IMG/VR virus record: IMGVR_UViG_3300020416_000007
DNA: 64,000 nucleotides
Strand: one strand, 5' to 3'
Source: an uncultured virus (IMG/VR IMGVR_UViG_3300020416_000007)
Lineage: Duplodnaviria; Heunggongvirae; Uroviricota; Caudoviricetes
The notes under the pieces were generated by a model. It made no database searches. It had not been told where the DNA came from and was given only the letters and a program-made list of their open reading frames with translations. Position numbers and translations under genes: made by a program. Of the stretch, positions 39,584 through 61,562 are shown piece by piece; the first letter of the stretch is position 1; each line of letters begins with the position of its first letter.

Positions 39584-39642
39584 AGAGTGCAGAATGATCT
39601 GGCTCTTTTACAATCTTGCTTGACATAAAGGAGATAACAATG
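39584..39642 (+). promoter_or_regulatory. ROSE-like RNA thermometer in hsp20 5' UTR
   Basis: AUCUUGCUU pairs with AAGGAGAU (SD) with a bulged G; preceded by hairpin agagtgcaga-atga-tctggctct. Confidence 0.65.
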
Positions 39643-41459: not shown

Positions 41460-41880
41460 ATTTTTATCAACTGTAGCTGTAATAGCTTCATTGTCTGTTC
41501 CAACATTTGCTGCAGACATAACAATCGATATGTTAAATAAACGTGATGATGGAGCAAAAATGGTATACTCCGAAGATATAGCACGTATTGACGTAGGCGA
41601 TACAATAACTTGGAATCCAAAATCAAAAGGCCACAATGTACATTTTATTGCTGGTCCTGAAGGATGGGAGCTTCCAGCAAAAAGTAAAAATAATAAAGAA
41701 GTATCAATAACATTTGATACAGCCGGCATTTACTTATACCAATGTACACCACATGCAACAATGGGTATGATTGCTATGGTAGTTGTTGGAGATGACATGT
41801 CAAATCTAGATGATATAAAAGACGTGAAGATACGTGGCAAGTCAAAGAGAAAAATGAAAGAACTACTGGAGAATTTGTAA
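41452..41880 (+). CDS. Pseudoazurin-like blue copper protein with signal peptide
   Basis: Signal peptide ending TFA; MLNK...MVY, GDTITW.P..KGHNV, YQCTPHATMGM type-1 Cu ligands. Confidence 0.88.
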   Translation: MIKFLSTVAVIASLSVPTFAADITIDMLNKRDDGAKMVYSEDIARIDVGDTITWNPKSKGHNVHFIAGPEGWELPAKSKNNKEVSITFDTAGIYLYQCTPHATMGMIAMVVVGDDMSNLDDIKDVKIRGKSKRKMKELLENL

Positions 41881-43355: not shown

Positions 43356-45929
43356 ATGTTTTATACCAATATTGTTCGTTATTCAAATTATATTCTTTAC
43401 CGGGGCTATGATGGCTCCGGTAAAAAAGTTTTTAGAAAAGAAAAGTTTAAGCCAAAATTTTATGTTCCGTCTAAAACACAGACTGGATGGCATGGCTTAG
43501 ACGGCACGCCAATTGGCGAAGTCGAGTTCGGATCAATGCGTGAAGCACGCGACTGGCTCGAACAATATAATGATGTAGGTGGTTTCAATATATATGGAGC
43601 TACTAATTATATTCATCAATATATTACTCAAAAGTTTCCTAAAGATATAGCATTCGATCGTGATAAGATCAATGTTACTACAATCGATATTGAAACAGAA
43701 TATGAAGGTGGCTTTCCTGATCCTGATATTGCTGATCAAACTGTATTAGCTATCACATTAAAAAATAATATAGATGGCATATACTATGTGTGGGGTTTAC
43801 AGGATTACGATGAAGAAGCTGCGCTTATAAAACCTTTGAAGTATGTAAAGTGTAGTAATGAAAATGAATTACTAGCACGATTCTTAGAACATTGGAAAAC
43901 TGAACAACATATACCTGATGTTATAACAGGTTGGAATGTTAGATTTTTCGATATACCTTATCTTGTAAATCGTATTAACCGTGTGCTTGGTCTTGATAGA
44001 TGTAGAGAATTCTCTCCATGGGGTTTAATCGATCATCGTAAAGTAAAGCGCATGAATCGTACACAGAGTACATACGATATAAAAGGTGTACAAGTTTTAG
44101 ATTATCTAGAATTGTTTCAAAAGTTTGGATATGCCTATGGCGCTCAAGAATCTTATAAGCTTGATCATATTGCATACGTAGTTCTTGGTGAAAAGAAATT
44201 ATCGTATGAAGAATCCGGTTCTCTAAAAAATCTATATAAAGACGATTACCAAAAGTACATTGACTATAATATGAAAGATGTACAATTGGTTGATCGCCTT
44301 GAAGATAAGATGGGATTGATTACACTTGCTATGACTGTAGCTTATAAAGGTGGTGTCAATTATCAAGATACATTTGGTACTACTGCGATATGGGAATCAA
44401 TTATATATCGTAAACTACTTAGTATGAAAACAGTTCCAAGTATCAATCAAATACCACAAAGTGATTATATGCCTCAAGGCGCTACCACTGAAGATAATCC
44501 TGGTCCTGTTGAAAGAAGTCGCGGTACGCCTGCACGATTTGCCGGTGGTTATGTAAAAGATCCTCAAGTTGGTGCACATGATTGGGTAGTGTCTTTTGAT
44601 TTAAATTCACTATATCCTAATATCATTGTACAATGGAATATGTCTCCTGAAACGCTAATGCAAAATCCTTGTGATCAGTTGCCTAGCGGTGTAGAATTAT
44701 ATTTACAAGATAAAGATCCTATACATCCAGCACAGCGTGAAAGAAACATAACAGTTGCTGCTAATGGTTCGACATATACAAAAGAAAAAGATGGTGTTAT
44801 TCCTAATCTTATTATTGAATACTATTCTGATAGATCTTCTATCAAGAAACAAATGCTATCTGCAGAAAAAGCTTATCAAAAAGGAAAAACATTTGAGTTA
44901 GAAAAAGAAATCAATAAGCTTCATAACCAGCAGATGGCTATTAAAATTCTTATGAACTCTTTGTATGGTGCATTAGGCAATCAATACTTTAAGTATTTTG
45001 ATTTACGTATGGCTGAAGGCGTTACTCTTACAGGTCAAACAGTAATACGTTGGGCAGAGAAAGCTATCAATAAAGAAATGAATAAGCTACTACAAACGGA
45101 GAAAGATTATGTACTGGCTATCGATACCGATTCTGTTTATATTAACATGGGTCCTCTTGTCAATAAATTTAATCCTAACGATCCTGTAAAGTTCTTAGAT
45201 AAAATTTGCCAAGAACACTTTGAACCTATGATGGCAAAGTCATATGATAAATTATATCATAACATGGCATGCCACAAGCCTCGTATGGAGATGGCTCGTG
45301 AAGTTATTGCTGATCGTGGTATATGGACTGCAAAGAAACGATACATATTAAACGTACATAACTCTGAAGGTGTTCAGTTTGCTGAGCCTAAACTAAAGAT
45401 AATGGGTATTGAAGCTATTAAGTCTTCTACACCTGAAGTTGTGCGTGGTAAGTTCAAAGAAATATTTAAAGTCATTATATCTGGAACTGAAGCTGATACA
45501 CAAAAGTTTATAAGAAATTTTAAGAATGAGTTTAAGGCTATGCCACCAGAACTTATTGCCTTTCCTCGTGGTGTAACAAACATTACAGATTGGAAAGATA
45601 GAAAGCTCATATATAAGAAAGGTACACCAATTCACGTACGTGGTTCATTATTGTATAATAAGTACCTAAAAGAATTTAAAGCCACAAATAAGTATGAGCT
45701 TATAGAAAATGGAAGTCGTATAAAGTTTTGTTATTTAAAGTTACCTAATACTATAAAAGAAAACGTCATAGCATTTCCTGACGTAATACCACGTGAGTTT
45801 GCTATCGATCGTTATGTAGATTATGAGAAACAATTTGAGAAAACTTTTGTTGAACCTCTCAAATTAATATTAGATGCTGTTGGCTGGACAGTTGAAGAAC
45901 AGCTAACGCTGGAGGACTTTTTCAATTGA
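43356..45929 (+). CDS. gp43: Family B DNA polymerase gp43
   Basis: DIET exonuclease, SFDLNSLYP, KILMNSLYGALG, IDTDS, KKRY. Confidence 0.98.
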   Translation: MFYTNIVRYSNYILYRGYDGSGKKVFRKEKFKPKFYVPSKTQTGWHGLDGTPIGEVEFGSMREARDWLEQYNDVGGFNIYGATNYIHQYITQKFPKDIAFDRDKINVTTIDIETEYEGGFPDPDIADQTVLAITLKNNIDGIYYVWGLQDYDEEAALIKPLKYVKCSNENELLARFLEHWKTEQHIPDVITGWNVRFFDIPYLVNRINRVLGLDRCREFSPWGLIDHRKVKRMNRTQSTYDIKGVQVLDYLELFQKFGYAYGAQESYKLDHIAYVVLGEKKLSYEESGSLKNLYKDDYQKYIDYNMKDVQLVDRLEDKMGLITLAMTVAYKGGVNYQDTFGTTAIWESIIYRKLLSMKTVPSINQIPQSDYMPQGATTEDNPGPVERSRGTPARFAGGYVKDPQVGAHDWVVSFDLNSLYPNIIVQWNMSPETLMQNPCDQLPSGVELYLQDKDPIHPAQRERNITVAANGSTYTKEKDGVIPNLIIEYYSDRSSIKKQMLSAEKAYQKGKTFELEKEINKLHNQQMAIKILMNSLYGALGNQYFKYFDLRMAEGVTLTGQTVIRWAEKAINKEMNKLLQTEKDYVLAIDTDSVYINMGPLVNKFNPNDPVKFLDKICQEHFEPMMAKSYDKLYHNMACHKPRMEMAREVIADRGIWTAKKRYILNVHNSEGVQFAEPKLKIMGIEAIKSSTPEVVRGKFKEIFKVIISGTEADTQKFIRNFKNEFKAMPPELIAFPRGVTNITDWKDRKLIYKKGTPIHVRGSLLYNKYLKEFKATNKYELIENGSRIKFCYLKLPNTIKENVIAFPDVIPREFAIDRYVDYEKQFEKTFVEPLKLILDAVGWTVEEQLTLEDFFN

Positions 45930-46720
45930 GAATAATTGCAGGACCATGTCAGCATGAGTCATTATACAAATCATTAGAGATTGCAGAACACTGTCAAGAG
46001 ATATGCGATAAGTATAATGTAGAATATTATTTTAAAGCTAGCTTTGATAAAGCAAATAGATCGCACATAGATAATACACGAGGATGTAACAGTGTACCAT
46101 GGGAGTCATTTGTAGAAACATTAAGAGACTTTAAACAAATGAAAGAAACTCTTGGTGTAAAAATACTAACAGATATACATGAACGTTGGCAGATTGGTGA
46201 CATGGTAAGAAATGGTTCTGTAGACGTAGTGCAGATACCAGCTTTTTTATCTAGACAAACAGATTTAATTACTGCAGTTGCTGATCAACAGTTTGAAGCT
46301 ATCAATATTAAAAAAGGACAGTTTATGTCTCCACAGGATGTTGAAGGTATACTAAGTAAAACAGCAGGTCGTAGAGTAAAAAATGTATGGATAACAGAAA
46401 GAGGAACTAGTTTTGGCTATGGACGTCTTATTAATGATTTCACTGGCATGTACGATATCCTTTGTGATTTACATGACAATTTTATTTACGATGTTACGCA
46501 CTCGGTCCAACAACCTGGAGGCACCTCGACTGGTGGAAATCGTGACTATGTGCCTGGTCTCGCTCGCGCTGGGGCCGCTCTTGGGATTACTTCTTTTTTC
46601 TTAGAAGTACATCCTGAACCTGATTATGCACCTAGTGATGCTGCAAACATGCTCGATCTTAATGATTTTGAGTGGGTAGTGAAAGATATAACTAATATTT
46701 CTAAATATGTGATAGGATAG
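45926..46720 (+). CDS. kdsA: KDO8P synthase (metal-dependent type)
   Basis: IAGPC, KASFDKANRS, QIPAFLSRQTDL, NIKKGQF, TERG.SFGY, DVTHSVQ. Confidence 0.92.
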   Translation: MRIIAGPCQHESLYKSLEIAEHCQEICDKYNVEYYFKASFDKANRSHIDNTRGCNSVPWESFVETLRDFKQMKETLGVKILTDIHERWQIGDMVRNGSVDVVQIPAFLSRQTDLITAVADQQFEAINIKKGQFMSPQDVEGILSKTAGRRVKNVWITERGTSFGYGRLINDFTGMYDILCDLHDNFIYDVTHSVQQPGGTSTGGNRDYVPGLARAGAALGITSFFLEVHPEPDYAPSDAANMLDLNDFEWVVKDITNISKYVIG

Positions 46721-46723
46721 AAA

Positions 46724-47068
46724 ATGAAAGCAGGTAAGATATGGGGTCAAACAGAATTGATCCACGCAAATGGTGTGTTAGAGTTTCACCGTATAGAATA
46801 CAAAGCTGGATTTAAATGCTCAGAACATGAACACCAATTTAAATGGAATGGCTTTTATGTAGAGTCAGGTCAAATGCTCGTACGCGTGTGGCAAGATGAT
46901 CAAGGATTAGTTGATGAAACTATTTTAAATCCAGGTGACTTTACACAAGTAAAGCCTGGTAAGATTCACCAGTTTGAAGGACTTGAAGACGGTGTTGCTT
47001 TTGAATTGTATTGGGCTGAGTTTAATCATAACGATATTGTAAGAAAAACAAGCGGAACGAAAGTATAA
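46724..47068 (+). CDS. Cupin-fold protein (possible sugar isomerase)
   Basis: CSEHEH..K.N.FYV.SG and GD...VKPG..HQF cupin motifs. Confidence 0.75.
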   Translation: MKAGKIWGQTELIHANGVLEFHRIEYKAGFKCSEHEHQFKWNGFYVESGQMLVRVWQDDQGLVDETILNPGDFTQVKPGKIHQFEGLEDGVAFELYWAEFNHNDIVRKTSGTKV

Positions 47069-47103: not shown

Positions 47104-47122
47104 ATAAAAAATGGAGAATAAT

Positions 47123-47533
47123 ATGTCTGATTGGGCAAACGATATTTACATGATGCACAATAAGTTTGGTGTACGTGAATGGTTCGAAAATAATAAAGAT
47201 GATGTAATGCTTATGCGAAAGTACTTGGCTTTTAGATTATTAATGTGCCAAGAAGAATTGCATGAAACTATGATGGCTGCTAATAATGGCAACCACGAAG
47301 AAATAGTTGATGGCCTTATCGATCTTTGTGTATTTGCTATTGGTACTTTGGATGTGTTTGGTGTTGATGCTAATAAAGCGTGGGATGCTATATACAAAGC
47401 TAACATGGCAAAAGAACCTGGTATAAAAGAAGGTCGTCCTAATCCATTCGGACTTCCTGACTTAATGAAACCAGAAGGATGGGAATCACCTAGCCATGCA
47501 GGAAACCACGGAAATCTCACTAACGTTATTTAA
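47123..47533 (+). CDS. MazG-like dNTP pyrophosphohydrolase
   Basis: EEL.E...EIVDGLID acidic motif, ANM.K, KPEGW. Confidence 0.8.
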   Translation: MSDWANDIYMMHNKFGVREWFENNKDDVMLMRKYLAFRLLMCQEELHETMMAANNGNHEEIVDGLIDLCVFAIGTLDVFGVDANKAWDAIYKANMAKEPGIKEGRPNPFGLPDLMKPEGWESPSHAGNHGNLTNVI

Positions 47534-49448: not shown

Positions 49449-49477
49449 TTTACATTCCCTGAGAAATGTGGTAGATT
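49449..49477 (+). promoter_or_regulatory. Sigma70-like promoter heading the DNA-modification operon
   Basis: AT-rich UP region, TTTACA-17nt-TAGATT with TG extension. Confidence 0.72.
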
Positions 49478-49504
49478 ATATCTATTAAATGAGGAGTTTA
49501 TAGA

Positions 49505-49747
49505 ATGTCAAATGGAATCAATTACGTAGCTGCTAACGAAGGTGGATTAACTTTCGGTATCGAAACAACTAATGGAACTATCAACCGACGTGCTGATACA
49601 ATCCAAGATGGTGTTGAGCTAATCAAAAAGTACGGTATTGCTGAAGCAGTGTTTGGTTCATCTTCAATGGACTTTGCTGCCGAAGAAGGTTTCGCCGACG
49701 ATGATGGTGCAACTAAATTCTGGAACAGAATCTTGGAGGCAGTATAA
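49505..49747 (+). CDS. Hypothetical protein
   Basis: gaggag SD directly after promoter. Confidence 0.65.
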   Translation: MSNGINYVAANEGGLTFGIETTNGTINRRADTIQDGVELIKKYGIAEAVFGSSSMDFAAEEGFADDDGATKFWNRILEAV

Positions 49748-50112
49748 TGTACGAAGGATATCAAGAAAAATTATTCTCAAATTCATGGGGTGTAAACTCT
49801 GGTTTCGAAACTATTAGAGAACAACTTAATGAGTTGATTCCACTTGAAGGTGCTTGTGAAAATCCAAGATCTACTAACAAGCATCTTGACAAATTTCGTA
49901 GAGCACAGAATGCTGCTTACGATTTATTTAATAATGGCCTATGCAACAAGCGTGGTCTATTTAAGCAACTCTTCGGATTTGCTCCTACCCAGCGAGATGC
50001 TAACTATGCTACTCGTATGCAGTGGTCTCATTGGGAAGATAGAGTCGAAGAAATCTTGACTCCTATCATAAGAGCTGCAGCTTTAGAACAAGGAATAAAG
50101 AATGAGTGTTAA
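49747..50112 (+). CDS. Hypothetical protein
   Basis: TAATG coupling; YDLFNNGLCN motif. Confidence 0.65.
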   Translation: MYEGYQEKLFSNSWGVNSGFETIREQLNELIPLEGACENPRSTNKHLDKFRRAQNAAYDLFNNGLCNKRGLFKQLFGFAPTQRDANYATRMQWSHWEDRVEEILTPIIRAAALEQGIKNEC

Positions 50113-50431
50113 TGAACGTGAATCGGTAAACGTCTTACAAGAGTGTATCGAATTACAAATTAAAAAAGGTCAAGACTATCAAAGTGATGAGTCTAGCGTG
50201 CTTCAAGCTATGCACTATCGTCGTGGTGTAGACACTATCCACGATATTATGGTAGGCAAAATGATGCGTGCTACATCGTTACTTGAGTCTGGCAATAATC
50301 CTAATCACGAATCTCTTGAAGATACATATAAAGACTTAATTAATTATGCATCATTTGCTGTGTCTTATATGCGTGGTACTATGGATGGTCAATCACCTGA
50401 TCGTGATATGTTCAACAGGAAAAAGAAATGA
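50102..50431 (+). CDS. DUF1599/nucleotide-modification-associated helical (MazG-like) protein
   Basis: L..C..LQ.KKG.DY...ESLEDT..DLINY pattern. Confidence 0.65.
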   Translation: MSVNERESVNVLQECIELQIKKGQDYQSDESSVLQAMHYRRGVDTIHDIMVGKMMRATSLLESGNNPNHESLEDTYKDLINYASFAVSYMRGTMDGQSPDRDMFNRKKK

Positions 50432-50844
50432 AAACTGGTTTAACAGCATCTACGTTTGACTTACTGCATGCAGGTCATGTTGCTATGTTAAGAGAAGCTA
50501 AATCTCAATGCGACTATCTTATCTGTGCTTTACAGATAGATCCAAGTGCAGATCGTCCTGAAAAGAATGCACCTATACAAACTATTGTAGAACGATACAC
50601 ACAGCTAGCTGCTGTAAAGTATGTAGATGAAATTGTGGTGTATGCTTCTGAAAGCGATCTAAACGATATACTTACTATGTATCCTATTGATGTACGTATT
50701 CTTGGTGATGAGTACAAAGATAAAGATTTTACAGGTAAAGATGAATGTCGTAAACTTGGTATTGAATTATATTTCAATAGCCGCAATCATCGATTTTCAT
50801 CAAGTGGACTAAGGGAGAGAGTCTGTGCGAATGCAAACAGTTAA
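50428..50844 (+). CDS. TagD-like (glycerol-3-phosphate) cytidylyltransferase
   Basis: TFDLLHAGH, ER...L.AVKYVDE, H.FSSS.LR. Confidence 0.85.
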   Translation: MKTGLTASTFDLLHAGHVAMLREAKSQCDYLICALQIDPSADRPEKNAPIQTIVERYTQLAAVKYVDEIVVYASESDLNDILTMYPIDVRILGDEYKDKDFTGKDECRKLGIELYFNSRNHRFSSSGLRERVCANANS

Positions 50845-51511
50845 AGATATACGTGAATTTTTTATTGGTGAGTTAAATGACGAAGCCTTTACTATCGATA
50901 AAACTGGACAAAAAACAATTGAATTGATTGGTGCTTCTTTCATAGCGACTGAACCATCTATCTTTGGTGTACCTAATGAAGAATACATTGAACGAGAATT
51001 AGAATGGTATGCTTCTGAATCTACAAACATATATGACATATATGGTATTAAGCATTTGAAAGAACCACCTGCGGCTTGGCAGTATGCTGGTGATGAGCAT
51101 GGCAACATCAACTCTAATTATGGTCATTTAATTTATTCAGAAAAGTATTATTCTCAGTTCACACAAGTAGTTGATGAACTATTTAAAAATCCAAATTCAC
51201 GTCGTGCTACTATGATTTACACACGTCCTAGTATGTGGATAGAATATAATGAAGGTGGTAAGAACGATTTTATTTGTACAAATGCAGTGTCATATTATAT
51301 ACGTGAAGATATGATACATGCTGTGGTGCAGATGCGTTCTAATGATGTAGTGTTTGGTTATAAGAATGATTACGCATGGCAAATGCATGTTCTTAAAGAA
51401 CTGTGTAAAGAGCTAAGTGATTTAAATTATGATGAATTGCATCCTGGCACAATACAGTGGCAAGTACAAAACTTGCACGTTTATGAAAGGCATTTTGATC
51501 TTGTCAAATAA
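50825..51511 (+). CDS. gp42: dCMP hydroxymethylase (T4 gp42-type thymidylate synthase homolog)
   Basis: NSNYG, SRRA.MIY.RPSM, DFICT, QMRSNDVVFGYKNDYAWQ (Asp at the dCMP-specificity position, as in T4 gp42), LHVYERHF. Confidence 0.88.
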   Translation: MRMQTVKDIREFFIGELNDEAFTIDKTGQKTIELIGASFIATEPSIFGVPNEEYIERELEWYASESTNIYDIYGIKHLKEPPAAWQYAGDEHGNINSNYGHLIYSEKYYSQFTQVVDELFKNPNSRRATMIYTRPSMWIEYNEGGKNDFICTNAVSYYIREDMIHAVVQMRSNDVVFGYKNDYAWQMHVLKELCKELSDLNYDELHPGTIQWQVQNLHVYERHFDLVK

Positions 51512-51944
51512 ATGGGATATAAGATACCTCAGGCTTGCTGAGGAAGTCGGTACTTGGTCCAAAGATCCCTCCTCCCAAATTGGCGCAGTAGCCATAGGAT
51601 CTAAGGGCCAAGTATTGGCACAAGGATATAATGGATTTCCTCGAGGAATAATGGACAGCACGATGAGGTTAGCTGATCGTGCAGAAAAATATAAGTACAT
51701 AGTTCACGCTGAACAGAACCTTATATACAATGCTACGTTCAATGGTGTTAACTTAGATGGCTCTACGATATATGTTACAGGTTTGCCAACGTGTTCCGAA
51801 TGCGCTAAAGGCGTCATTCAAGTTGGAATCAAACGAGTTGTAATGCCTGTTCAAGATGTAAAAGAACAGTGGATTGAATCGTGGTCTCTTACAAAAAAAA
51901 TGTTTAAAGAAGCAGGTGTTGAATATGAGTTCGTTAAAATGTAA
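51501..51944 (+). CDS. cd: dCMP deaminase
   Basis: SKDPS..IGA, GYNGFPRG, HAEQN, PTCSEC; exact start uncertain. Confidence 0.9.
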   Translation: MSNKWDIRYLRLAEEVGTWSKDPSSQIGAVAIGSKGQVLAQGYNGFPRGIMDSTMRLADRAEKYKYIVHAEQNLIYNATFNGVNLDGSTIYVTGLPTCSECAKGVIQVGIKRVVMPVQDVKEQWIESWSLTKKMFKEAGVEYEFVKM

Positions 51945-52308
51945 TACAATTTTTGTAGGCATGAATCCATCTAAAGTTCCAGTAAGCAGGTCTAAAGGAT
52001 CTGCTTATAAACGTTTTCATGACTGGTTAGATTATTTAGAATTGAAACATGTATCATTCACTAACCTATCGCCTGATCCTGATTGGGATTTTAAATTTAA
52101 ATCATTTGATCACAATTTATTGTTTACAAGTCTGCAAAATTATGATAGAATAATAGTATGGGGATCATTAGTATCTAATTATCTAAGAAGGTTAGGTTTC
52201 ACAGAACACTTTGTTTTACCACATCCTTCACCTAGAAATAGAAAACTTAATGATCATAAATACGTACATAATGTGTTAAATGAGTGTAAGGAATATTTAA
52301 ATGACTAA
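51925..52308 (+). CDS. Minimal uracil-DNA glycosylase superfamily protein (SMUG1-like motifs)
   Basis: FVGMNPS and LPHPSPRN motifs. Confidence 0.7.
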   Translation: MSSLKCNTIFVGMNPSKVPVSRSKGSAYKRFHDWLDYLELKHVSFTNLSPDPDWDFKFKSFDHNLLFTSLQNYDRIIVWGSLVSNYLRRLGFTEHFVLPHPSPRNRKLNDHKYVHNVLNECKEYLND

Positions 52309-53548
52309 GATTGCTATCGTACTAGGGAGAGGTACTGAAGGCTGTGGTGTAACGCAATGTGCTATTCAAATGCAAAAGGTTACAGACGCACATATCTTTA
52401 CTACAACTGATAAGAAATGGGGTAGAGCTAAAGGACTTGATATCGTACAAAACGAATTCTCAATGGCAAAGGAATGGGAACTCATAGCTGATGCTATTAA
52501 CTTGTCTTTTGATTTGTGTATCATATATTCTATTCCTTCGAAAGGACATCCTCAAGAATGTCAAGATAATTTTATTCCATTCCTTAAACACATTAAAACT
52601 CGTAAAGCTTTTATTAACGTAGACCATAAAGCTGCTTCTATTGCACGTAACGCAAATCTTAAAGAAGTCTGTGAAAACGTAGATGTTATTATGACTCATA
52701 GTATGGAGAATGATTTCTGTAAGTTTATAAGAAAAAATAAAATAGAAACTCCACTTACAAAGATGGGGCTAGGCTTTGATTATGATGGACACCGTGAAAA
52801 GTATTGGCGTCCTATTGAAGAACAGCAACACAACATGGTAAGATGGATTGGCCGTACTGCTATGTGGAAAGGACCAAGCGTTATGATTGACTTCCATCAA
52901 GACGCTTTGATGACGTATGGATTCATCACAGTCCTTGAAGGATTAGAAGCTTCTATTCAATATCCTCTAGTCTTATATAGAGATAATAAATCAGATAATC
53001 CTACAGATCGTAGAATTGTAGAAAATCATTTCAGGCCTGAGAAACATTACAATGATGTAAAGTTTACACCTGATCTGTATGGCAAAGAAGTTAAAGATAA
53101 AGGTGCATATCTTTATCCTCAATATATAAACTCAGAAGCTATGGACCGTTTATCACGATCAGCGTTTGGTTCTGATTTATATTTTTTGAAAGCAGAACAC
53201 TATGGCAATAATATAGAAAATTGTCATGCAGAATGTATAGCATCTGGTACAGTTCCACTATTTCACAAACACTTTTGTGATAACGTGATTCATCCTGTAC
53301 AAGGTAAACCAATTAGTCAATGTCAAAATTCTGGTACTCTTGGCGTTGATTACACTAACTTTAATGAGTGCCGCGACCAAATGGTCAAACTTAAAAATGA
53401 TCCTGCGATGAGAGATGATTGGAGAGAGATGGCTTTTGAATTTTGGAAACAACACTCCGACGGAGAAATGGTTGTGAAAGAAATAATTGATCTCGCTTTG
53501 AACACTACTAGCAACCAACCACAAGGACTCGAGGAATTTTTCACATGA
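52301..53548 (+). CDS. agt: DNA glycosyltransferase, T4 alpha-glucosyltransferase homolog
   Basis: IAIVLGRGTEGCGVT, DH...SIARNA.L.E....DVI..HS...DF, RWIGR...WKG, E.IA.GT.P.F follow the T4 Agt pattern. Confidence 0.85.
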   Translation: MTKIAIVLGRGTEGCGVTQCAIQMQKVTDAHIFTTTDKKWGRAKGLDIVQNEFSMAKEWELIADAINLSFDLCIIYSIPSKGHPQECQDNFIPFLKHIKTRKAFINVDHKAASIARNANLKEVCENVDVIMTHSMENDFCKFIRKNKIETPLTKMGLGFDYDGHREKYWRPIEEQQHNMVRWIGRTAMWKGPSVMIDFHQDALMTYGFITVLEGLEASIQYPLVLYRDNKSDNPTDRRIVENHFRPEKHYNDVKFTPDLYGKEVKDKGAYLYPQYINSEAMDRLSRSAFGSDLYFLKAEHYGNNIENCHAECIASGTVPLFHKHFCDNVIHPVQGKPISQCQNSGTLGVDYTNFNECRDQMVKLKNDPAMRDDWREMAFEFWKQHSDGEMVVKEIIDLALNTTSNQPQGLEEFFT

Positions 53549-54498
53549 AAATATTAATCACTGGTATAGCCGGAATGATCGGCTTTCATTCAGCCAAGTA
53601 CTTTAGGTCACAAGACTTCGAAGTAGTTGGTGTAGATAACTTCAACGACTATTACGATCCAAAACTAAAAGAAGATCGTGCTAGTATATTAGAGAAAGAA
53701 TATGGCGTTTCTATATTACGCCATGATATTCAACACTTTACTCATCTACTTGACAATCCAATATTAAAGGATGTAGATGTCGTATTGCACTTAGCAGCAT
53801 ATGCTAATCCACGTCATTCGTTTGAGGAACCTCAACATTATATTGACACTAACATTACAGGTACACAGCGTATCATTGAAACATTAGAACAACGAAATAT
53901 TCCTTGTGTCTATGCTTCAAGCTCATGTGTAATGCATGGACAACCACTTCCATGGAATGAGCATGATAGACCAGCTCATCAAAATAATCCTTATGGCTGG
54001 TCAAAGCGTTCGAATGAATGCCAGTTTATGCATTCAAAATTACCACGTAGCGCTGGTTTACGATTCTTTACTGTGTATGGTCCTTATGGTCGACCAGACA
54101 TGGCACTATTTAAATTTACAGATAATATCGTAAAACGCAGACCGATAGATTTATACAACTTTGGTGATATGAAACGTGACTTTACATACGTAGATGATAT
54201 TGTACAAGGTATTGGTATTGTAGTTGAAAAAGTATTTAATGACGAAGAGCGATATCATGAAATCTATAACATAGGTTATGGTGATCAGGTCGAGTTAATT
54301 GATTTTGTTGAAGAGATTGAAAAGAACTTAGATCGTAAAGCATTGCGAAATTTAGTCCCTAAGCACCCCGCTGACACCCCTGAGACGTGGTCTGACACCA
54401 CTAAGTTGCAGGCGTTAGGTTATAAACCCACAACACCTGTGACAGAAGGTATTCGCGAGTTTGTTTCTTGGTACAAATCTTATTATGGAGTTAACTAA
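53545..54498 (+). CDS. UDP-glucuronate 4-epimerase-like SDR
   Basis: ITGIAGMIG, DNFNDYYD..LK, YGWSK, LRFFTVYGPYGRPDMA.FKF, G.MKRDFTYVDDIV. Confidence 0.88.
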   Translation: MKILITGIAGMIGFHSAKYFRSQDFEVVGVDNFNDYYDPKLKEDRASILEKEYGVSILRHDIQHFTHLLDNPILKDVDVVLHLAAYANPRHSFEEPQHYIDTNITGTQRIIETLEQRNIPCVYASSSCVMHGQPLPWNEHDRPAHQNNPYGWSKRSNECQFMHSKLPRSAGLRFFTVYGPYGRPDMALFKFTDNIVKRRPIDLYNFGDMKRDFTYVDDIVQGIGIVVEKVFNDEERYHEIYNIGYGDQVELIDFVEEIEKNLDRKALRNLVPKHPADTPETWSDTTKLQALGYKPTTPVTEGIREFVSWYKSYYGVN

Positions 54499-55313
54499 TG
54501 AAGCTTGGTATTATAGGCCACGGGTTTGTTGGCAAAGCAGTTGATTATGGTTTTCATAGTTGTGATAAGATTATTATTGATCCTCTATATGGAAATGATA
54601 TTGAAGAACTGGAGAATGAGCGTTTAGATGTTACGTTTGTTTGTGTACCTACACCTATGGGTGAAGACGGTTCAATCGATTCTTCTATTGTAGAAAAGAC
54701 TGTACGATTTTGTAAAAGAAAAGTTTCAGGCTTGATTGTAGTTAAGTCTACAGTTACACCAGACATTGTAGAAAAATTACAAGGTGGAATGGCAGGCGAT
54801 AGAGTCATTTACAATCCTGAATTTCTCACAGAAAAGAATGCTCAAGAAGATTTTATTAATCCTCAAATGCATATCTTTGGTGGAGTTAAGGAGAAAACTA
54901 GAAAGCTAAGTTGGATATATAAAGAGTATAGTCTTTGTAAACCTTGTCCAGTATATCACATGTCTGGACCAGATGCTAGCTTTGTTAAGTACGGAATCAA
55001 TTGTTTCTTAGCTTCTAAAGTTTTATGGTTTAATCAATTTTACGATGTAGTAAAAGACTTTGGAGGAAACTTTGGTCATGTCATTAATGCAATTGGAACT
55101 GATAGCCGAATCGGCCAATCTCATACTCGTGTTCCTGGCTTTGACGGTAAGCGTGGTTACGGCGGTGCTTGTTTTCCAAAAGATACAACTGCCTTTGCAA
55201 GTTTTGCTCAATCGTTTTCTACACTAGAAAAAGTGATTGAGGAAAATAATAAGTATAGAAAAGACTACGATAAAGATGAACGTGAATTAGCACAGAATGT
55301 AAGTTATGGTTAA
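54498..55313 (+). CDS. UDP-glucose/nucleotide-sugar 6-dehydrogenase (short form lacking the usual C-terminal domain)
   Basis: IIGHGFVG, CVPTP, KSTV.P, NPEFL.E, D.RIG, GYGGACFPKD. Confidence 0.87.
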   Translation: MKLGIIGHGFVGKAVDYGFHSCDKIIIDPLYGNDIEELENERLDVTFVCVPTPMGEDGSIDSSIVEKTVRFCKRKVSGLIVVKSTVTPDIVEKLQGGMAGDRVIYNPEFLTEKNAQEDFINPQMHIFGGVKEKTRKLSWIYKEYSLCKPCPVYHMSGPDASFVKYGINCFLASKVLWFNQFYDVVKDFGGNFGHVINAIGTDSRIGQSHTRVPGFDGKRGYGGACFPKDTTAFASFAQSFSTLEKVIEENNKYRKDYDKDERELAQNVSYG

Positions 55314-56496
55314 GTATGCAAGTATAGTTCCACTCATTGGTGGCGAAACAATAGCAATGGAAAAGGTATTCGGGTCTAGGCCCGAGTACATCTTATCGTA
55401 TAAGGATTTTCAAGCAAATGATAACCAGCTCCTTAATTATTATAATAATAGTATGCCTTATGTTCTTCTCGATGAAGGCGGTACTGCTCCTGGCAAAGTT
55501 GATATTATCAATACTGTCTGTCCTTGTGCAGGTCTCAGTTCACTTAGTCCTACTAGCGCTAGTGATAGCACTACTAATGATTGGATGGTCAAGTCTGCAG
55601 AGTATGTGCTCGAATCCCTCCAACCAACTGTGTTCTGGGGTGAAAACGCTCCACGGCTCGCTAGTAAAATGGGAGAACCAGTTGTTAACAGATTACGATC
55701 CCTTGCAAAAGATAATGGATATGTCTTCTCAATCTACAAAACAAAATCAATCTTACACGGATTGAGTCAAGTAAGAGATCGTGCATTTTATTTCTTTTGG
55801 AAAGGTAATGAGGTACCTAAGTTCTCATATTATAATAGACCGTATACTAAGATTGAAGATCAGATACGTTCTTCTGCCACTAACACAGAAGATCCTATGT
55901 TTGAACAGGTGAACAATAAAGCTAAGCCTACAGACAATCCTTATTATCAATATGTGTTAGAAGAAATGCATGGTGGAATTACACACCAAGAATTTTTTAA
56001 GAAGATTGAGAAAACAACTAATCCATTGCATTATATTGAAGATCACGGTGGAGACTATCGTGTAGTAAGTAAGTGGATGTCAGATCGTGGTCACCAAAAG
56101 CTTTCAGAGAAATGCATATACATGTATGAAAAGTTAAAGGCTGGTAAAAATATTATGAGAAAAATGACAGAGATAGGTAAAGACCATATTGGCGCTTTCG
56201 TAGGTCATTTCCCTCATAGCCTAGTGCATCCTGATCAAGACAGGTATATCAATACACGTGAAGCTTTAGATATTATGAAGATGCCAAAAGACTTTGAATT
56301 ACAAGGTGGCTTAAAAAATCTTAACATGATTTGTCAAAACGTGCCTGTCACTACAGCTACAGATATGGCAGAAAATGTAAAAGACTTCTTAGGTGGAACA
56401 GCTGATACTATTAAATCAGAATATGTAGTACAGGATAATAAAACTAAAACTATATTCTCTAGAAAAAAACCTGGTACACTTGAAGCATTTTTTTAG
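55306..56496 (+). CDS. Atypical DNA cytosine-C5 methyltransferase-fold protein
   Basis: PCAGLS (motif IV), GENAP (VI), Q.RDR.F (VIII), R.I..RE...M..P.DF (IX), QNVP (X); motif I degenerate (VPLIGG). Confidence 0.72.
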   Translation: MVKYASIVPLIGGETIAMEKVFGSRPEYILSYKDFQANDNQLLNYYNNSMPYVLLDEGGTAPGKVDIINTVCPCAGLSSLSPTSASDSTTNDWMVKSAEYVLESLQPTVFWGENAPRLASKMGEPVVNRLRSLAKDNGYVFSIYKTKSILHGLSQVRDRAFYFFWKGNEVPKFSYYNRPYTKIEDQIRSSATNTEDPMFEQVNNKAKPTDNPYYQYVLEEMHGGITHQEFFKKIEKTTNPLHYIEDHGGDYRVVSKWMSDRGHQKLSEKCIYMYEKLKAGKNIMRKMTEIGKDHIGAFVGHFPHSLVHPDQDRYINTREALDIMKMPKDFELQGGLKNLNMICQNVPVTTATDMAENVKDFLGGTADTIKSEYVVQDNKTKTIFSRKKPGTLEAFF

Positions 56497-56525
56497 TTTA
56501 CATTCAGACAAAAATGTGGTAGAAT
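56497..56525 (+). promoter_or_regulatory. Sigma70-like promoter before uvsX
   Basis: TTTACA-17nt-TAGAAT. Confidence 0.8.
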
Positions 56526-57608: not shown

Positions 57609-57924
57609 AACATACGAGTTGATTCCTGATGATGGAGGCGAGTCTTGGCATGTTAGAATTAAAGAAGGCATGTTTTCTGAAGCAGTAATTCAGTTTGGAG
57701 CTATAAAGATTGGTAAACAGTTAGATGACGGTGATCATCAAATTACATTTGATTTTGATCTTATTAGTTCTCCAGATGAAGACTTAAGTGTTGATGATGA
57801 AGAATTACAAACGACTGCTGGAGATATCTTACATGATATTATGGTGCAATCCTTAGAAAAAGATGATGGATCTATGGCAGTCAAAGATGCAGATAAACCT
57901 GATGCTAATTGGGAGATGTTATGA
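57589..57924 (+). CDS. Hypothetical acidic protein (gp40-like position)
   Basis: Between uvsX and gp41 as gp40 is in T4; no decisive motif. Confidence 0.5.
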   Translation: MKHQENKTYELIPDDGGESWHVRIKEGMFSEAVIQFGAIKIGKQLDDGDHQITFDFDLISSPDEDLSVDDEELQTTAGDILHDIMVQSLEKDDGSMAVKDADKPDANWEML

Positions 57925-58340
57925 AAATACTAATAATGGGTTTGCCGGGATCTGGTAAAACTCATCTAGCTAAAAGATTACACGTGCATTTAAACTGCGC
58001 GTGGTATAACGCAGATAAAGTAAGAGAAATGGCTAATGATTGGGACTTTACTCCATCAGGCCGTAGACGTCAAAGCGAACGTATGAATTCAATTGCTACG
58101 TTTGAAGCGACAAGAGCTCGTACTGTTATCTGCGATTTTGTTTGTCCTACAGGAGAAACACGTAAACAATTCGATGCTGACATTACAATATGGATGGACA
58201 CTATACAAGCTGGTAGATATGATGATACAAATCAAATATTCGAAGAACCAACTGATATGGATTTCAGACTTGCATCTTTTATGTCAGATCCTGATATTGT
58301 TAGCTTTGCAAATTTATTAAAGGAAAAATATAATGTTTAA
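57921..58340 (+). CDS. Adenylylsulfate-kinase-like P-loop kinase
   Basis: MGLPGSGKT, NAD.VR...DWDF...GR, DFVCP, FEEP. Confidence 0.7.
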   Translation: MKILIMGLPGSGKTHLAKRLHVHLNCAWYNADKVREMANDWDFTPSGRRRQSERMNSIATFEATRARTVICDFVCPTGETRKQFDADITIWMDTIQAGRYDDTNQIFEEPTDMDFRLASFMSDPDIVSFANLLKEKYNV

Positions 58341-58773
58341 TCCAGTAACCAAGCGCCGCTTGTTTAATACAATGGAACCTACAGTTCAAATGCTTGGTAG
58401 GTGGCAACCGTGGCATCCTGGCCACACAGAATTATTTAAAAAAGCACATGCAATGACTGGTCAAGTTTGCATTCAAATCAGGACTGTACCGCAAAATCGT
58501 GAAGCTAATTCACGAGTACCTGGTCAAGATGATAACCCATGGATAGTTGAAGATGTAAAGCAAAATATTATTAATCATTTATCAGAAGAGGGGTTTACAG
58601 AAGGGTTTGAATATGTTATAATGGTAGTACCAAACATTGTAGACATAGCATATGGACGCGGTGTTGGCTACACATTTACAGAGCACGATCTTGGTGAACA
58701 GATACACGCAATCTCAGCAACTAAAATACGTGCAGATTTAAGAAAGGCTGGCAAGCTTGCAGACAAATCTTGA
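58333..58773 (+). CDS. HxGH-class nucleotidyltransferase
   Basis: GRWQPWHPGH and ISATKIR. Confidence 0.75.
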   Translation: MFNPVTKRRLFNTMEPTVQMLGRWQPWHPGHTELFKKAHAMTGQVCIQIRTVPQNREANSRVPGQDDNPWIVEDVKQNIINHLSEEGFTEGFEYVIMVVPNIVDIAYGRGVGYTFTEHDLGEQIHAISATKIRADLRKAGKLADKS

Positions 58774-60133
58774 ACTAACAATTTTAAGAAACATCTTAAC
58801 AGATGAAAAGTATATGCGTAAGGTTCTACCTTTCGTAAAACCAGATTATTTTGAGGGTATATACAGAATACTCTTTAAAGAAGCTGGTAAGTTTGTTGGA
58901 AAATATAATAAGCTTCCTACAATAGAAACTTTTAAAATTGAGTTAGATCAGTCTGATAGAATTGGTGGAGAAAATTATACAGTTGCTGTAGATTTATTAC
59001 CACAATTATTTTCTAGTGAAAAGATAGATGAGGAATGGTTACTTAATAATACAGAAAAATGGTGCCAAGATAGAGCGATATATAATGCTGTCATGGAATC
59101 GATATCGATTATTGACGGTAAACATGAATCACTAACTAAAGGTGCTTTACCTGAATTATTACAAAAAGCATTAGGTGTAGCTTTCGATACTAACGTCGGT
59201 CACGATTACATACAGAATGTAGAAGAAAGATGGGATTTCTATAATAAACAAGAAGAAAGGATACCATTTGACATCGAATATTTTAATAAAATCACTAAAG
59301 GCGGTGTTCCAAATAAAACTCTTAACATTGCTCTTGCCGGCACTGGTGTTGGTAAGTCTCTTTTCATGTGCCACGTTGCCTCTTCTGCCTTAGTTGACGG
59401 TAAAAATGTTTTATATATTACTATGGAAATGGCAGAAGAACGTATAGCAGAACGTATCGATGCAAACTTATTGAATGTACCAATTGATCAATTAGAAACA
59501 ATGCCAAAGACTATGTTTACTGAAAAAGTAAAACAGCTGTCAACTAAAACTACTGGTCAATTAATCATTAAGGAATACCCTACCGGTTCTGCACATGCTG
59601 GTCATTTTCGTGCATTATTAAATGAATTAAAATTAAAGCGACAATTTGAACCAGATATTATTTTTATTGATTACTTAAATATTTGTGCATCATCACGAAT
59701 GAAAGGCATGGGAGGATCGATCAATTCATACAATTACATTAAAGCAATTGCTGAGGAATTACGTGGCCTTGCAGTGGAGTTCGACCTACCGATCTTCTCT
59801 GCAACACAAACGACTCGTTCTGGTTATAGTAACTCGGATGTTGGGCTTGAAGACACGAGCGAGTCTTTTGGATTACCCGCTACCGCTGACCTCATGTTTG
59901 CACTCATTTCAACAGAAGAACTCCAACAGCTAGGCCAAATGATGGTCAAACAATTAAAGAATAGATATAATGATCCAACACAAAATAAAAGATTTGTTAT
60001 CGGTGTAGATCGAAGCAAGATGAAATTATTTGATGTTGATCCAAATGAGCAAACGCTGACAGACGATACACCAGTGTATGATAAGACACCTGCTGGTGAA
60101 GGCATGGCAAAATTTAAGGATTGGAATATATGA
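58757..60133 (+). CDS. gp41: Replicative helicase gp41
   Basis: AGTGVGKS, ITMEMAEE, IIKEYPT, IDYLNI, SATQTTR, QLKNRY. Confidence 0.96.
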   Translation: MQTNLELTILRNILTDEKYMRKVLPFVKPDYFEGIYRILFKEAGKFVGKYNKLPTIETFKIELDQSDRIGGENYTVAVDLLPQLFSSEKIDEEWLLNNTEKWCQDRAIYNAVMESISIIDGKHESLTKGALPELLQKALGVAFDTNVGHDYIQNVEERWDFYNKQEERIPFDIEYFNKITKGGVPNKTLNIALAGTGVGKSLFMCHVASSALVDGKNVLYITMEMAEERIAERIDANLLNVPIDQLETMPKTMFTEKVKQLSTKTTGQLIIKEYPTGSAHAGHFRALLNELKLKRQFEPDIIFIDYLNICASSRMKGMGGSINSYNYIKAIAEELRGLAVEFDLPIFSATQTTRSGYSNSDVGLEDTSESFGLPATADLMFALISTEELQQLGQMMVKQLKNRYNDPTQNKRFVIGVDRSKMKLFDVDPNEQTLTDDTPVYDKTPAGEGMAKFKDWNI

Positions 60134-60879
60134 ATGATTTGATTTTTACTAACTGTGAAGACTTCTTAGAAAGTCAAAAAGTTCTTGAACGCTTATACGT
60201 ATTTGATGTTGATGGAACACTAACTGCTAGCCGGCAGAAGATGGATCCAGATTTTAAAGAGTTCTTTATAGAGTTTTGTAAGAACAACGCTGTTTATCTA
60301 ATCACAGGTTCTGATAGAGTAAAGACTTTAGAGCAAGTTGGAATTGACGTATATTATTTTGCTGATAGAGTATATAATTGTTCTGGCAATCATGTCTTTG
60401 AACAAGACAGAGAGATATATAGAACAGATTGGAGATTACCTGATCCAGCTGCATTCTTCTTATTAGATAAATTAGCGGACAGTGGATTCTATAGAAAAAC
60501 AGGACATCATATAGATGAAAGACCAGGCATGGTAAACTTTAGTATTGTTGGACGCAAATGTAATTTTGAAGAACGTGTAATGTATCGTGAATGGGATGAA
60601 CATAAGAATGAAAGAAGAATAATTGCCGAAGAGTTTAACTCTAAATTTCCTGACATTGAAGCTTTAGTTGCAGGTGAAACTGGTTTAGATATTTTTCCAC
60701 GTGGTCTTAATAAAGGACAAGTGATTGATGATTTAAAAGGTTATGATGTACATTTCTTTGGTGATAAAATGGATGAAGGTGGTAATGATTATCCACTAGC
60801 AGTGTTAAATACAAAAGGTACAAACTATCATGTGGATTGTTGGAAACATACTTGGAAATTATTAAAAGGAATGCAATGA
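60130..60879 (+). CDS. Eukaryotic-type phosphomannomutase (HAD IIB)
   Basis: FDVDGTLTASRQ, ER.GM.NFS.VGR, DIFP.G..K, HFFGDK...GGNDY. Confidence 0.82.
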   Translation: MNDLIFTNCEDFLESQKVLERLYVFDVDGTLTASRQKMDPDFKEFFIEFCKNNAVYLITGSDRVKTLEQVGIDVYYFADRVYNCSGNHVFEQDREIYRTDWRLPDPAAFFLLDKLADSGFYRKTGHHIDERPGMVNFSIVGRKCNFEERVMYREWDEHKNERRIIAEEFNSKFPDIEALVAGETGLDIFPRGLNKGQVIDDLKGYDVHFFGDKMDEGGNDYPLAVLNTKGTNYHVDCWKHTWKLLKGMQ

Positions 60880-61562
60880 AAGCTCGACTTATATCGTATA
60901 GCCAACCGACAAGCCGGATTCATACCGGAGAATTATCAGTAGGAGGATTAGACAATATCCAAGATCTCATCGCGTATTGCGCCCGTGTCTCCAATCCGTC
61001 GAACCAACTTAACACGAAGACAACTTCGAAATTACTTAGATATCTCATCAAACACAAACACTGGTCGCCATTCGAAATGGCGTCAGTCTGCATCGAAATC
61101 CAAACGACAAGAGACATCGCAAGACAACTCCTCAGACACAGATCGTTTTCATTTCAAGAGTTTTCTCAGCGGTATGCTAATATCAATGATATTACTGATT
61201 CTATTGTAATACGTAAAGCACGTTTACAAGACGAAAGCAATCGTCAGAATAGTGTTGAAACAAATGATGCAAGGTTATTAACTGTATGGGAAGAACACCA
61301 AAGAAACGTATGGTATGCTGCAATGAAAGCATACAATTGGGCTATTGAAAATGGAATAGCAAAAGAACAAGCAAGAGCTGTATTACCAGAAGGTAACACT
61401 CCGTCTAGACTATACGTCAACGGAACTATTCGAAGCTGGATACATTATATTGAATTACGATCGGCCAATGGCACGCAACAAGAACATATGGAACTCGCTA
61501 TTGCATGTGGACAAGCCATAAGCAGAATCTTTCCTACATTAGAAGATGGATCTGATGGATGA
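60876..61562 (+). CDS. thyX: Flavin-dependent thymidylate synthase
   Basis: HWSPFE, RQLLRHRSFSFQEFSQRY, KEQARAVLP, TQQEH. Confidence 0.95.
   Translation: MKARLISYSQPTSRIHTGELSVGGLDNIQDLIAYCARVSNPSNQLNTKTTSKLLRYLIKHKHWSPFEMASVCIEIQTTRDIARQLLRHRSFSFQEFSQRYANINDITDSIVIRKARLQDESNRQNSVETNDARLLTVWEEHQRNVWYAAMKAYNWAIENGIAKEQARAVLPEGNTPSRLYVNGTIRSWIHYIELRSANGTQQEHMELAIACGQAISRIFPTLEDGSDG

Follow-up and report, generated by a model that had tools for sequence, protein, structure and literature searches.

A T4-type cytosine-replacement module with a proposed re-tooled sugar step in an uncultured marine phage: a candidate route to uronic acid on hydroxymethylcytosine

Which sugar would a phage attach to its DNA when the genes for making a hydroxymethylated base are followed by a DNA glycosyltransferase gene and, overlapping with this, by genes resembling those of uronic acid synthesis? 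The question is raised by a run of genes on the + strand (49449-56496) in a stretch of 64,000 nucleotides, here called the window, from an uncultured marine T4-like phage (IMG/VR record IMGVR_UViG_3300020416_000007). The run lies inside the replication module, and profile searches reveal that the same window encodes gp20, gp23, terminase, gp43, gp44/45/62, UvsW/X/Y and a DnaB-like helicase. A first-pass annotation had proposed that the run serves to add galacturonic or glucuronic acid to 5-hydroxymethylcytosine (hmC) from a donor built by the phage itself. Gene calls were made from an open reading frame (ORF) listing together with three profile libraries (Pfam, PHROGs and NCBIfam): every gene listed earlier for this run was found in its place and on the + strand, and the overlaps described between the sugar genes, ATGA for agt and the following epimerase-like gene and TAATG for the latter and ugd, could be read directly in the sequence, with a further overlap of 8 nt between ugd and the methyltransferase gene behind it. 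Based on the enzyme identities, the conserved catalytic residues, the structure of the operon and its synteny, we propose a T4-style cytosine-replacement module with a re-tooled sugar step, and we lean towards hexuronosyl-hmC as its product, probably in the galacturonosyl form.

The nature of the base is indicated by the gene at 50825-51511 (+; likely start ATG 50831), for which the earlier assignment as a gp42-type dCMP hydroxymethylase is borne out: the T4 enzyme (PDB ID: 1b49) is matched at E 2.8e-70 (residues 4-227 against 6-225), whereas ordinary thymidylate synthases (TS) match far worse (E 5e-7 or worse). The catalytic Cys is retained (DFICTN, aligned to T4 DFMCTN), as is the Asp that specifies dCMP (KNDYAWQ, aligned to RNDYAWQ, the column being marked by the D179N mutant chain 6l18); we take these residues to be Cys148 and Asp179 in T4 numbering. 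In T4, this Asp replaces the Asn of TS and selects dCMP. Together with the match to 1b49, its presence points to hmC and not to hydroxymethyluracil as the base, and the TS-like gene is best described as that of a true gp42-type dCMP hydroxymethylase. Several genes for the nucleotide pool accompany it. A dCMP deaminase is encoded at 51429-51944 (+; likely start near 51483; PF00383 E 6.4e-18; phrog_174 E 1.8e-40), a DUF1599 ("nucleotide modification associated domain 1") protein at 50102-50431 (+; PF07659 E 2.3e-6, 28.3 bits against a cut-off of 25; phrog_1485) and, elsewhere in the window and as stated before for the supply of dTMP, the flavin-dependent thymidylate synthase ThyX at 60837-61562 (+; PF02511 E 3.7e-42). 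A MazG-like NTP pyrophosphohydrolase gene (47111-47533, +; PF01503 E 5.4e-10; phrog_671) had been omitted from the earlier list and probably belongs to the cassette as well: in related phages it accompanies the cassette upstream, as mazG-primase. Among phages whose pyrimidines are replaced, relatives of the MazG-like protein are encoded by Xp12, RL38J1 and PaMx74, the best match being from pelagiphage Kolga, where it stands beside a TS-like gene; the protein is a candidate dCTPase and would then be a functional analogue of T4 gp56.

The transferase gene (52301-53548, +) encodes an Agt-family DNA glycosyltransferase (GT) of the GT-B type. Its description as an Agt homolog stands, since PF11440 is matched at E 1.9e-30 with 106.6 bits against a cut-off of 25 and the protein spans T4 AGT over its full length (PDB ID: 1xv5; E 6e-42, residues 3-398 against 3-398). 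Identity to T4-like Agt proteins is at most ~32% among 656 phage records. In the cultured cyanophage S-TIM5 (NC_019516.2; 6754-8034 and 137304-138521), homologs of the window's Agt (30% identical) and of its methyltransferase (32%) were found, along with a TS-family gene.

The gene coupled to agt by the ATGA overlap (53545-54498, +) encodes a short-chain dehydrogenase/reductase (SDR), whose best solved relatives are 5u4q (8.4e-67), 6zl6 (the UDP-glucuronate 4-epimerase of B. cereus; 8e-42) and MoeE5 (5.7e-27). Matches to other SDR classes are weaker (GalE ~1e-17, UXS ~1e-13, HldD 6e-12), and the SDR can be placed in the UDP-glucuronate 4-epimerase lineage, in agreement with the first-pass annotation. 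The entry 5u4q we take to be a Klebsiella uronate epimerase, its depositors' label being dTDP-glucose 4,6-dehydratase; the JGI pipeline labels close homologs of the phage SDR as UDP-glucuronate 4-epimerase. The N-terminal GxxGxxG of extended SDRs is present (TGIAGMIGFH), the catalytic Tyr (NPYGWSK) aligns to the Tyr mutated in 6zlj, the Lys is kept and ASSS aligns to STSS. The stretch GLRFFTVYGPYGRPDMALF does not vary among 16 of the 17 phage SDRs that were compared, the deviating one being an unrelated SDR of the type seen in locus L104. The block GLRFFTVYGPxGRPDMALF is kept too, and the Thr and Arg of FFTVYGPxxRPDMA presumably hold the substrate. The phage lineage is further marked by the motif AS(S/T)SCVM(H/A)G.

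Joined to the SDR gene by the TAATG overlap is a gene for a UDP-glucose-6-dehydrogenase-like protein of 271 aa (54498-55313, +), which we refer to as mini-Ugd. The earlier description of a short Ugd-like dehydrogenase holds in that the N-terminal and central domains are present (PF03721 5.7e-15; PF00984 2e-15) and make up the whole protein. It aligns to UDP-glucose dehydrogenases (UGDHs) at the catalytic motif GGACFPKD, at NPEFL and at K..N, and it ends where the UDP-binding domain would start, with alignments stopping near residue 300 of chains of 402-450 aa. A structural model (pLDDT 96.3) likewise retrieves UGDHs as best folds (TMq 0.73-0.81; TMt 0.46-0.57, at about half the UGDH length). 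Because the C-terminal UDP-binding domain (PF03720) is missing, the mini-Ugd is not filed as a canonical UGDH. It is not a broken gene, given a large short-form family in which the Cys motif is kept: 456 clusters match it at E <= 1e-30 in a search of 1.84 billion cluster representatives, and among the best 150 of these 134 are 240-320 aa long, 3 reach at least 380 aa and 140 keep the Cys motif. The mini-Ugd belongs with many other short enzymes that have no UDP-binding C-terminal domain; we know of no study of this family. In some T4-like contigs (L113 and L117, also L109-L111, L114 and L116) a mini-Ugd occurs without the epimerase, with DUF6915 and a gene resembling that of nucleoside 2-deoxyribosyltransferase at a distance of a few kb.

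The arrangement of these genes is retained among relatives. An Agt scan of IMG/VR yielded 145 confirmed relatives from 147 candidates, of which the best 80 (67-100% identical) were kept; the window sequence itself recurs at 100% identity in L002, L134 and L135. The SDR gene directly follows agt in all 74 loci with at least 700 nt of downstream sequence, the gap being -1 to 8 nt in 70 of them, 47 nt in one and ~720-760 nt in three. The ugd gene comes directly after that of the SDR in 58 of 67 loci, is found upstream between DUF1599 and gp42 in two and is not in the locus in seven; five of these seven were analysed contig-wide, one having ugd elsewhere and four being contigs of 7-20 kb. Where Ugd is relocated (L040, L077) it stays within the hmC cassette in the order DUF1599-Ugd-gp42. 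The methyltransferase gene lies within 2 kb 3' of the SDR gene (53/53 loci) and gp42 upstream of agt (40/41 loci with > 3 kb of upstream sequence). A profile scan of metagenome contigs returned the same clade (66-100% identical) and largely the same contigs, with the SDR gene beside agt in 66 of 67; the exception, L200, spans no more than 2.3 kb and breaks off behind a 169-aa ORF on the reverse strand, too early to show an SDR gene. This ORF (L200:1608-2117) looks like a small homing-endonuclease-type gene; in L037, L051 and L053, 716-758 nt lie between agt and the SDR gene. Neither TET (Tet_JBP) nor a second DNA-type GT (TAGT) was found in five of five clade contigs, including the complete 146.6-kb genome G008, which argues that hmC is made before replication and leaves Agt as the only DNA-type GT found. 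The nearest record found, G001 (31.8 kb), has neither agt nor gp42, and megablast retrieved no match to the 7-kb region among 50,697 phage records.

The epimerase and mini-Ugd genes also occur behind a different transferase. A second scan, anchored on the mini-Ugd, gave 48 relatives with 47 loci, 26 of them without agt. TAGT (PF20691) is present in 15 of these 26 agt-less contigs, the 11 others being mostly fragments of 2-6% completeness. By coordinates, TAGT stands directly 5' of an SDR-Ugd pair in 12 contigs (verified with Pfam in L092, L104 and L112): eight of these carry an SDR of the window's lineage, sharing AS(S/T)SCVM(H/A)G and GRPDMALF, and the other four (L103-L106) a different SDR. 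The order in L101 and L118 is TAGT, primase, nucleotidyltransferase/SDR/Ugd, uvsX. As far as the accessible texts go, the TAGT family includes the T2/T6 enzyme that adds a second glucose to glucosyl-hmC (PMC13216743), and its metavirome members are JGT-like (bioRxiv 10.1101/2023.12.21.572611). The epimerase/mini-Ugd pair is thus found beside two unrelated families of DNA GT, which is hard to reconcile with a role in envelope glycans. Two further arrangements were seen among these contigs: in L101 (9567-11871) uvsX appears to be split by an ORF with a NUMOD3 motif (homing endonuclease), and L099:6-5816 (similarly L097) has a 415-aa ORF, a methyltransferase 33% identical to that of the window, an Rv2179c-like exonuclease, the epimerase, the mini-Ugd and lastly a protein of 299 aa that matches GT-A faintly, in this order. 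No agt, TAGT, TET or TS gene was found on the 81.8-kb contig of L099.

The last gene of the run (55306-56496, +) encodes an enzyme of the C5-cytosine DNA methyltransferase family (C5MT; PF00145 E 1.1e-15). The strings PLIGG, PCAGLS, ENAP, Q155/R157/R159 (Q.R.R) and QNVP do not vary across 14 homologs of 33-80% identity, and we take them to be motifs I, IV (PC), VI (ENV), VIII (QxRxR) and X. Judged from this homolog alignment the canonical C5-MTase motif set is full; a phmmer search of the C5MT against PDB sequences gave nothing at E <= 0.01, and no homolog of it was found in phage C48C1 or in four TAGT-type contigs. The C-terminus of the C5MT (TLEAFF) resembles those of Agt (GLEEFFT) and of the polymerase (TLEDFFN), and such an end occurs in none of 21 other window proteins examined. 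Over the IMG/VR loci, LE[EV]FF forms the C-terminus of 75 of 77 Agts and L[ED]xF[FLIM] that of at least 53 of 56 C5MTs; the SDR (..YYGVN) and Ugd (..QNVxYG) also have conserved ends, unrelated to the polymerase-type peptide. In view of work on T4 and RB69, the LEEFF-type peptide is a candidate for binding the gp45 clamp. The pattern fits a division in which Agt and the C5MT would act on nascent DNA and the SDR and Ugd on soluble substrates, and a clamp-type peptide common to polymerase, Agt and C5MT suggests that modification may be coupled to the replication fork. The C5MT itself may methylate DNA, with residual unmodified cytosine as the probable target.

The pathway that we propose would comprise five steps. 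The MazG-like protein, as dCTPase, and the gp42-type enzyme would replace dCTP by hm-dCTP in the nucleotide pool, the supply of dTMP being kept up by dCMP deaminase and ThyX, and the polymerase would then incorporate hmC into DNA. In a third step the mini-Ugd would convert UDP-glucose to UDP-glucuronate and the epimerase the latter to UDP-galacturonate. Agt, probably riding on the clamp via its C-terminal LEEFF peptide, would add the hexuronic acid to the hydroxymethyl group: galacturonic acid is the favoured candidate here, and glucuronic acid may be considered as well. Finally, the clamp-tethered C5MT of the same operon would act on the DNA as well, probably on the cytosine left unmodified. 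The notion of an acidic donor made by the phage for its Agt, central to the first-pass annotation, gains from the identity of the SDR, the 74/74 synteny and the pairing with TAGT and is thereby supported in part; that the window's Agt would use a UDP-uronate is something we infer.

How well does this pathway stand up to simpler and to more elaborate alternatives? The strongest of them, which we nevertheless regard as unlikely, is ordinary T4-type glucosyl-hmC: Agt would use UDP-glucose from the host, the SDR and mini-Ugd would feed other glycans, of the host envelope or of the virion, and the slot between polymerase and uvsX would simply gather accessory genes. A number of observations favour it or weigh against hexuronosyl-hmC. 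To our knowledge, every characterised Agt is a user of UDP-glucose. In the 656 phage records, Agt homologs of T4-like and other phages stand without sugar genes beside them, as does that of cyanophage S-TIM5; in S-TIM5 no sugar-nucleotide genes adjoin agt, and no close SDR or Ugd was found beside it. The synteny of agt and the SDR gene in 74 of 74 loci comes from one clade (Agt at least 67% identical) and may for this reason be inherited and not selected. Within the SDR, AS(S)SCVMHG replaces the cellular ASSSSVYG or STSSVYG, with Cys in third position and an insertion of one residue, and the changed Ser is presumably a contact of the carboxylate. On G006 and G030, two larger contigs of about 40% completeness, a Ugd is present and neither agt nor TAGT, and in the TAGT-type viral contigs (15-63% complete) Tet_JBP was found in none of four, being present only in C48C1, and PF00303 in none of five. 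C48C1, the closest cultured relative (UvsX 75% identical), has the SDR-Ugd pair in the same slot (primase-SDR-Ugd-uvsX) and no agt, gp42 or TAGT. Elsewhere in the complete clade genome G008 there are genes for two GT25 enzymes and a GT8, GTs that could use a UDP-uronate, as well as for an FkbM methyltransferase and another SDR, and taken together with the KdsA-like, cupin and phosphomannomutase (PMM) genes of the window, which are unrelated to agt, these imply that other sinks for sugar nucleotides exist. Furthermore, the polymerase-uvsX region is described as highly plastic in the available part of a study of RB69 (PMC6024577).

Against glucosyl-hmC stands, however, the fact that the coupling of agt to the SDR gene is not only conserved in 74 of 74 loci but also tight, through the ATGA overlap, and that the same epimerase lineage with a mini-Ugd occurs directly behind an unrelated DNA GT (TAGT) in phages that lack agt. 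A Ugd displaced from its usual place remains in the hmC cassette (L040 and L077). The case of C48C1 is also less damaging than it appears: elsewhere in its genome three consecutive genes, all annotated as hypothetical (L122:4584-8031; OQ984149.1 49583-53030), encode a TET/JBP dioxygenase of 472 aa, an uncharacterised protein of 344 aa and a UDP-galactopyranose mutase, and C48C1 is most probably itself a phage with sugar on its DNA, though of a different design (possibly with a furanose), and not a control free of modification. The first-pass annotation had named epimerase and ugd genes occurring apart from agt in relatives as a finding that would speak against it: they do so in C48C1, but not generally.

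A second alternative retains the idea of a phage-made sugar and alters the product, either through a mini-Ugd acting on an ADP- or CDP-hexose, through oxidation after transfer of the sugar to DNA, or through the addition of 3-deoxy-D-manno-octulosonic acid (Kdo) or heptose; we consider it distinctly improbable. It draws on a weak point of the hexuronosyl-hmC pathway, namely the UDP-binding domain missing from the mini-Ugd, which leaves the substrate of this enzyme uncertain. The same domain is missing across the short Ugds (134 of the best 150 clusters being 240-320 aa long), and as a separate protein PF03720 was absent from three of three relative genomes (two complete, one a 65%-complete contig), with 13 of 14 control genomes positive. 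The ADP- or CDP-hexose would come from an HxGH-family cytidylyl/adenylyltransferase resembling TagD and RfaE domain II (50428-50844, +; PF01467 E 2.7e-13), for which the models TIGR02199 (1.4e-19) and TIGR01518 (6.1e-18) were matched; TagD and RfaE-II models score equally, both below their cut-offs. The nucleotidyltransferase gene directly adjoins SDR-Ugd in L100, L101 and L118, and the window has further genes that would suit such a scheme (KdsA-like, cupin, PMM, a P-loop kinase and a second HxGH-like gene). Kdo-5hmC and heptose-5hmC have both been reported, the heptose form needing a cytidylyltransferase, in the accessible text of bioRxiv 10.1101/2023.12.21.572611. Yet the nucleotidyltransferase is optional, being missing in many members of the clade that retain agt-SDR-Ugd, and the SDR is of full length and nearest to UDP-glucuronate epimerases. 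The SDR and the Ugd also lack the clamp-type C-terminal peptide of the two DNA-directed enzymes, and no second DNA-type GT was found in a complete clade genome. Two other roles for the SDR were set aside, a route to arabinose via UDP-xylose since it is far nearer to 4-epimerases than to UXS, and an ADP-heptose 6-epimerase given a top NCBIfam match of 111 bits against a cut-off of 275 and the HldD match of 6e-12 in the PDB.

Returning to hexuronosyl-hmC as the preferred product, a bolder form of the proposal can be put forward tentatively: virion DNA with alpha-hexuronosyl-hmC in place of essentially all cytosine, with the donor supplied through a phage-specific minimal 6-dehydrogenase that works without a UDP-binding domain. 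If true, this would be the first natural, pre-replicative and genome-wide acidic-sugar DNA, along with a new class of enzyme supplying donors for DNA glycans, and a widespread and abundant group of marine phages would package DNA with a carboxylate, and hence a negative charge, on each cytosine. The charge and packaging of the DNA would be altered, as would its response to restriction, to type IV enzymes and to CRISPR nucleases, so that escape from restriction and CRISPR may be among the benefits, and marine virome sequencing would be biased. It would furthermore mean that acidic-sugar DNA, hitherto obtained only from TET-type viral clusters rebuilt in E. coli, is natural and has two origins, one on the scaffold of T4 Agt and the other on a JGT-like scaffold. 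The truncated Ugd family presents an enzymological puzzle in its own right, with a UGDH active site that has no UDP-binding domain, and Agt variants of new donor specificity could help in labelling 5hmC. The Agt-SDR-mini-Ugd module is widespread in marine viromes and does not constitute a new category.

The transcription of the run is less simple than first described. The two promoters placed at 49449 and 56497 both fit a motif, TTTACA-N14-TGnTAGAWT, that has 10 copies in the window (30641, 33158, 36573, 37517, 43321, 49449, 52123, 56497, 58594 and 62335), all on the + strand and against 0.26 expected by chance; however, a third copy falls inside the run. Exact matches thus head the run (49449-49477, +), lie 178 nt 5' of agt (52123-52151, +) and precede the next unit, that of uvsX (56497-56525, +). 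Given the internal copy, agt-SDR-ugd-C5MT may also be transcribed separately. Most copies are located just 5' of replication genes (uvsY, gp45, gp44, gp43 and uvsX) and they look like the early/middle promoter consensus of the phage, whilst a generic sigma-70 scan of the window gave 36 sites against 33.5 expected, no excess over chance.

Within the run, the small protein taken earlier for one of uracil-DNA glycosylase (UDG) fold (51874-52308, +; likely start 51925, giving 127 aa) fared less well. PF03167 is matched below the cut-off (E 0.002, 18.6 bits against 24.3), and a structural model of pLDDT 81 gave no fold match at E <= 0.001; most of its best rows (E 0.009-0.05, TMq 0.5-0.67) are nevertheless chains of the UDG superfamily (TDG, family-4 UDG, SMUG1, UNG and MUG). 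With HPS..NR and G..P invariant across 17 homologs, these faint matches make for a weak assignment as UDG-like. Two small ORFs of 80 aa and 121 aa at the start of the run (49505-50112, +) have no Pfam or PHROG match and were seen in no loci other than L002, L134 and L135, which are 100% identical.

Outside the run, the KdsA-like (DAHP-synthase-I-family) gene and the small cupin gene (45926-47068) are located directly after the DNA polymerase gene and before the MazG-like gene. Behind uvsX (57909-58773) come a P-loop kinase (AAA_33/APS-kinase-like) and an ORF with an HxGH-like motif and no Pfam match at 1e-5, and a gene for a PMM of eukaryotic type overlaps the start of thyX (within 60121-60879); kinase, HxGH-like ORF and PMM are possible further sugar-nucleotide genes. 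Among the replication genes we also observed those for a glutaredoxin (38482-38769), an Hsp20 (39616-40131), a DoxX-like protein (40550-40966) and a copper protein of the plastocyanin/azurin family (41428-41880). In G008, the second SDR, FkbM and two GT25 genes stand together with many ORFs of ~230 aa (L126:541-7212), and the GT8 gene is beside a radical-SAM gene (L128:6294-8161).

How does this module compare with known systems? An acidic sugar on hmC had been thought undescribed in the first-pass annotation, which does not hold: hexuronic acid-5hmC (HexA-5hmC, 433 amu) is already reported in a preprint on phage gene clusters of C5-MT, TET and GT rebuilt in E. coli (Pyle et al., 2023, bioRxiv 10.1101/2023.12.21.572611; what follows refers to its accessible text). 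It was obtained from contig 57, with an epimerase and a GT, and from contig 91, with a GT alone. The "subclass II" clusters of that study combine a GT with a sugar epimerase, most of the GTs needing the epimerase, and GT-B-type GTs are noted there with ThyS homologs and with epimerases among their neighbours. Both the chemistry and the logic of pairing a GT with an epimerase are hence already known. Like subclass II, the run described here has a DNA GT adjoining a sugar epimerase thought to supply its donor (agt and SDR, with the ATGA overlap), and the TAGT-SDR-Ugd loci (L092, L112 and others) resemble the same architecture. Unlike here, 5hmC is made in subclass II after replication by C5-MT and 5mYOX/TET, whereas the present clade has gp42 and no TET in five of five contigs; the representative GT57 is a GT-A, JGT-like enzyme and not an Agt-family GT-B. 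A UDP-glucose dehydrogenase does not appear in that text ("glucuron" has 0 matches, and the sole "dehydrogenase" is a HAD label). Uronic sugars and DUF1599 find no mention in the available parts of PMC13326640, PMC8670742 and PMC13216743 either.

With the T-even system (T4 gp42, gp56, cd and alpha-glucosyltransferase) the window shares the Cys and Asp of gp42, the dCMP deaminase, an Agt of full length and a replication module beside uvsX. T4 alpha-glucosyltransferase is said to act with the replisome in the accessible part of PMC13216743, and the polymerase-like C-terminal peptide on the window's Agt is a corresponding likeness. The differences lie in an Agt of ~32% identity coupled to an SDR and a truncated Ugd that T4 lacks, in a MazG-like protein in the role of gp56, in ThyX for Td, in a C5MT within the operon, and in having neither beta-glucosyltransferase nor TAGT. 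RB69, as described in the available text of PMC6024577, is likewise a T4-like phage with a sugar other than glucose, arabinose, on hmC and with donor genes proposed in the polymerase-uvsX region, but its transferase (ORF003c) is not an Agt, and both the sugar and the candidate donor genes are others. Bacterial pairs of Ugd and UDP-glucuronate 4-epimerase (Cap1J, Gla and BcUGAepi) follow the same logic from UDP-glucose via UDP-glucuronate to UDP-galacturonate, with catalytic residues that are kept here; unlike these, the phage pair consists of a 271-aa Ugd without PF03720 and an SDR with the motif AS(S/T)SCVM(H/A)G, and it is found in a DNA-modification operon and not in a capsule or lipopolysaccharide locus. 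What sets the predicted module apart from acidic-sugar DNA as described so far is thus its pre-replicative gp42 route to hmC, a transferase of the Agt family, a truncated Ugd of the phage's own and a clamp-tagged C5MT.

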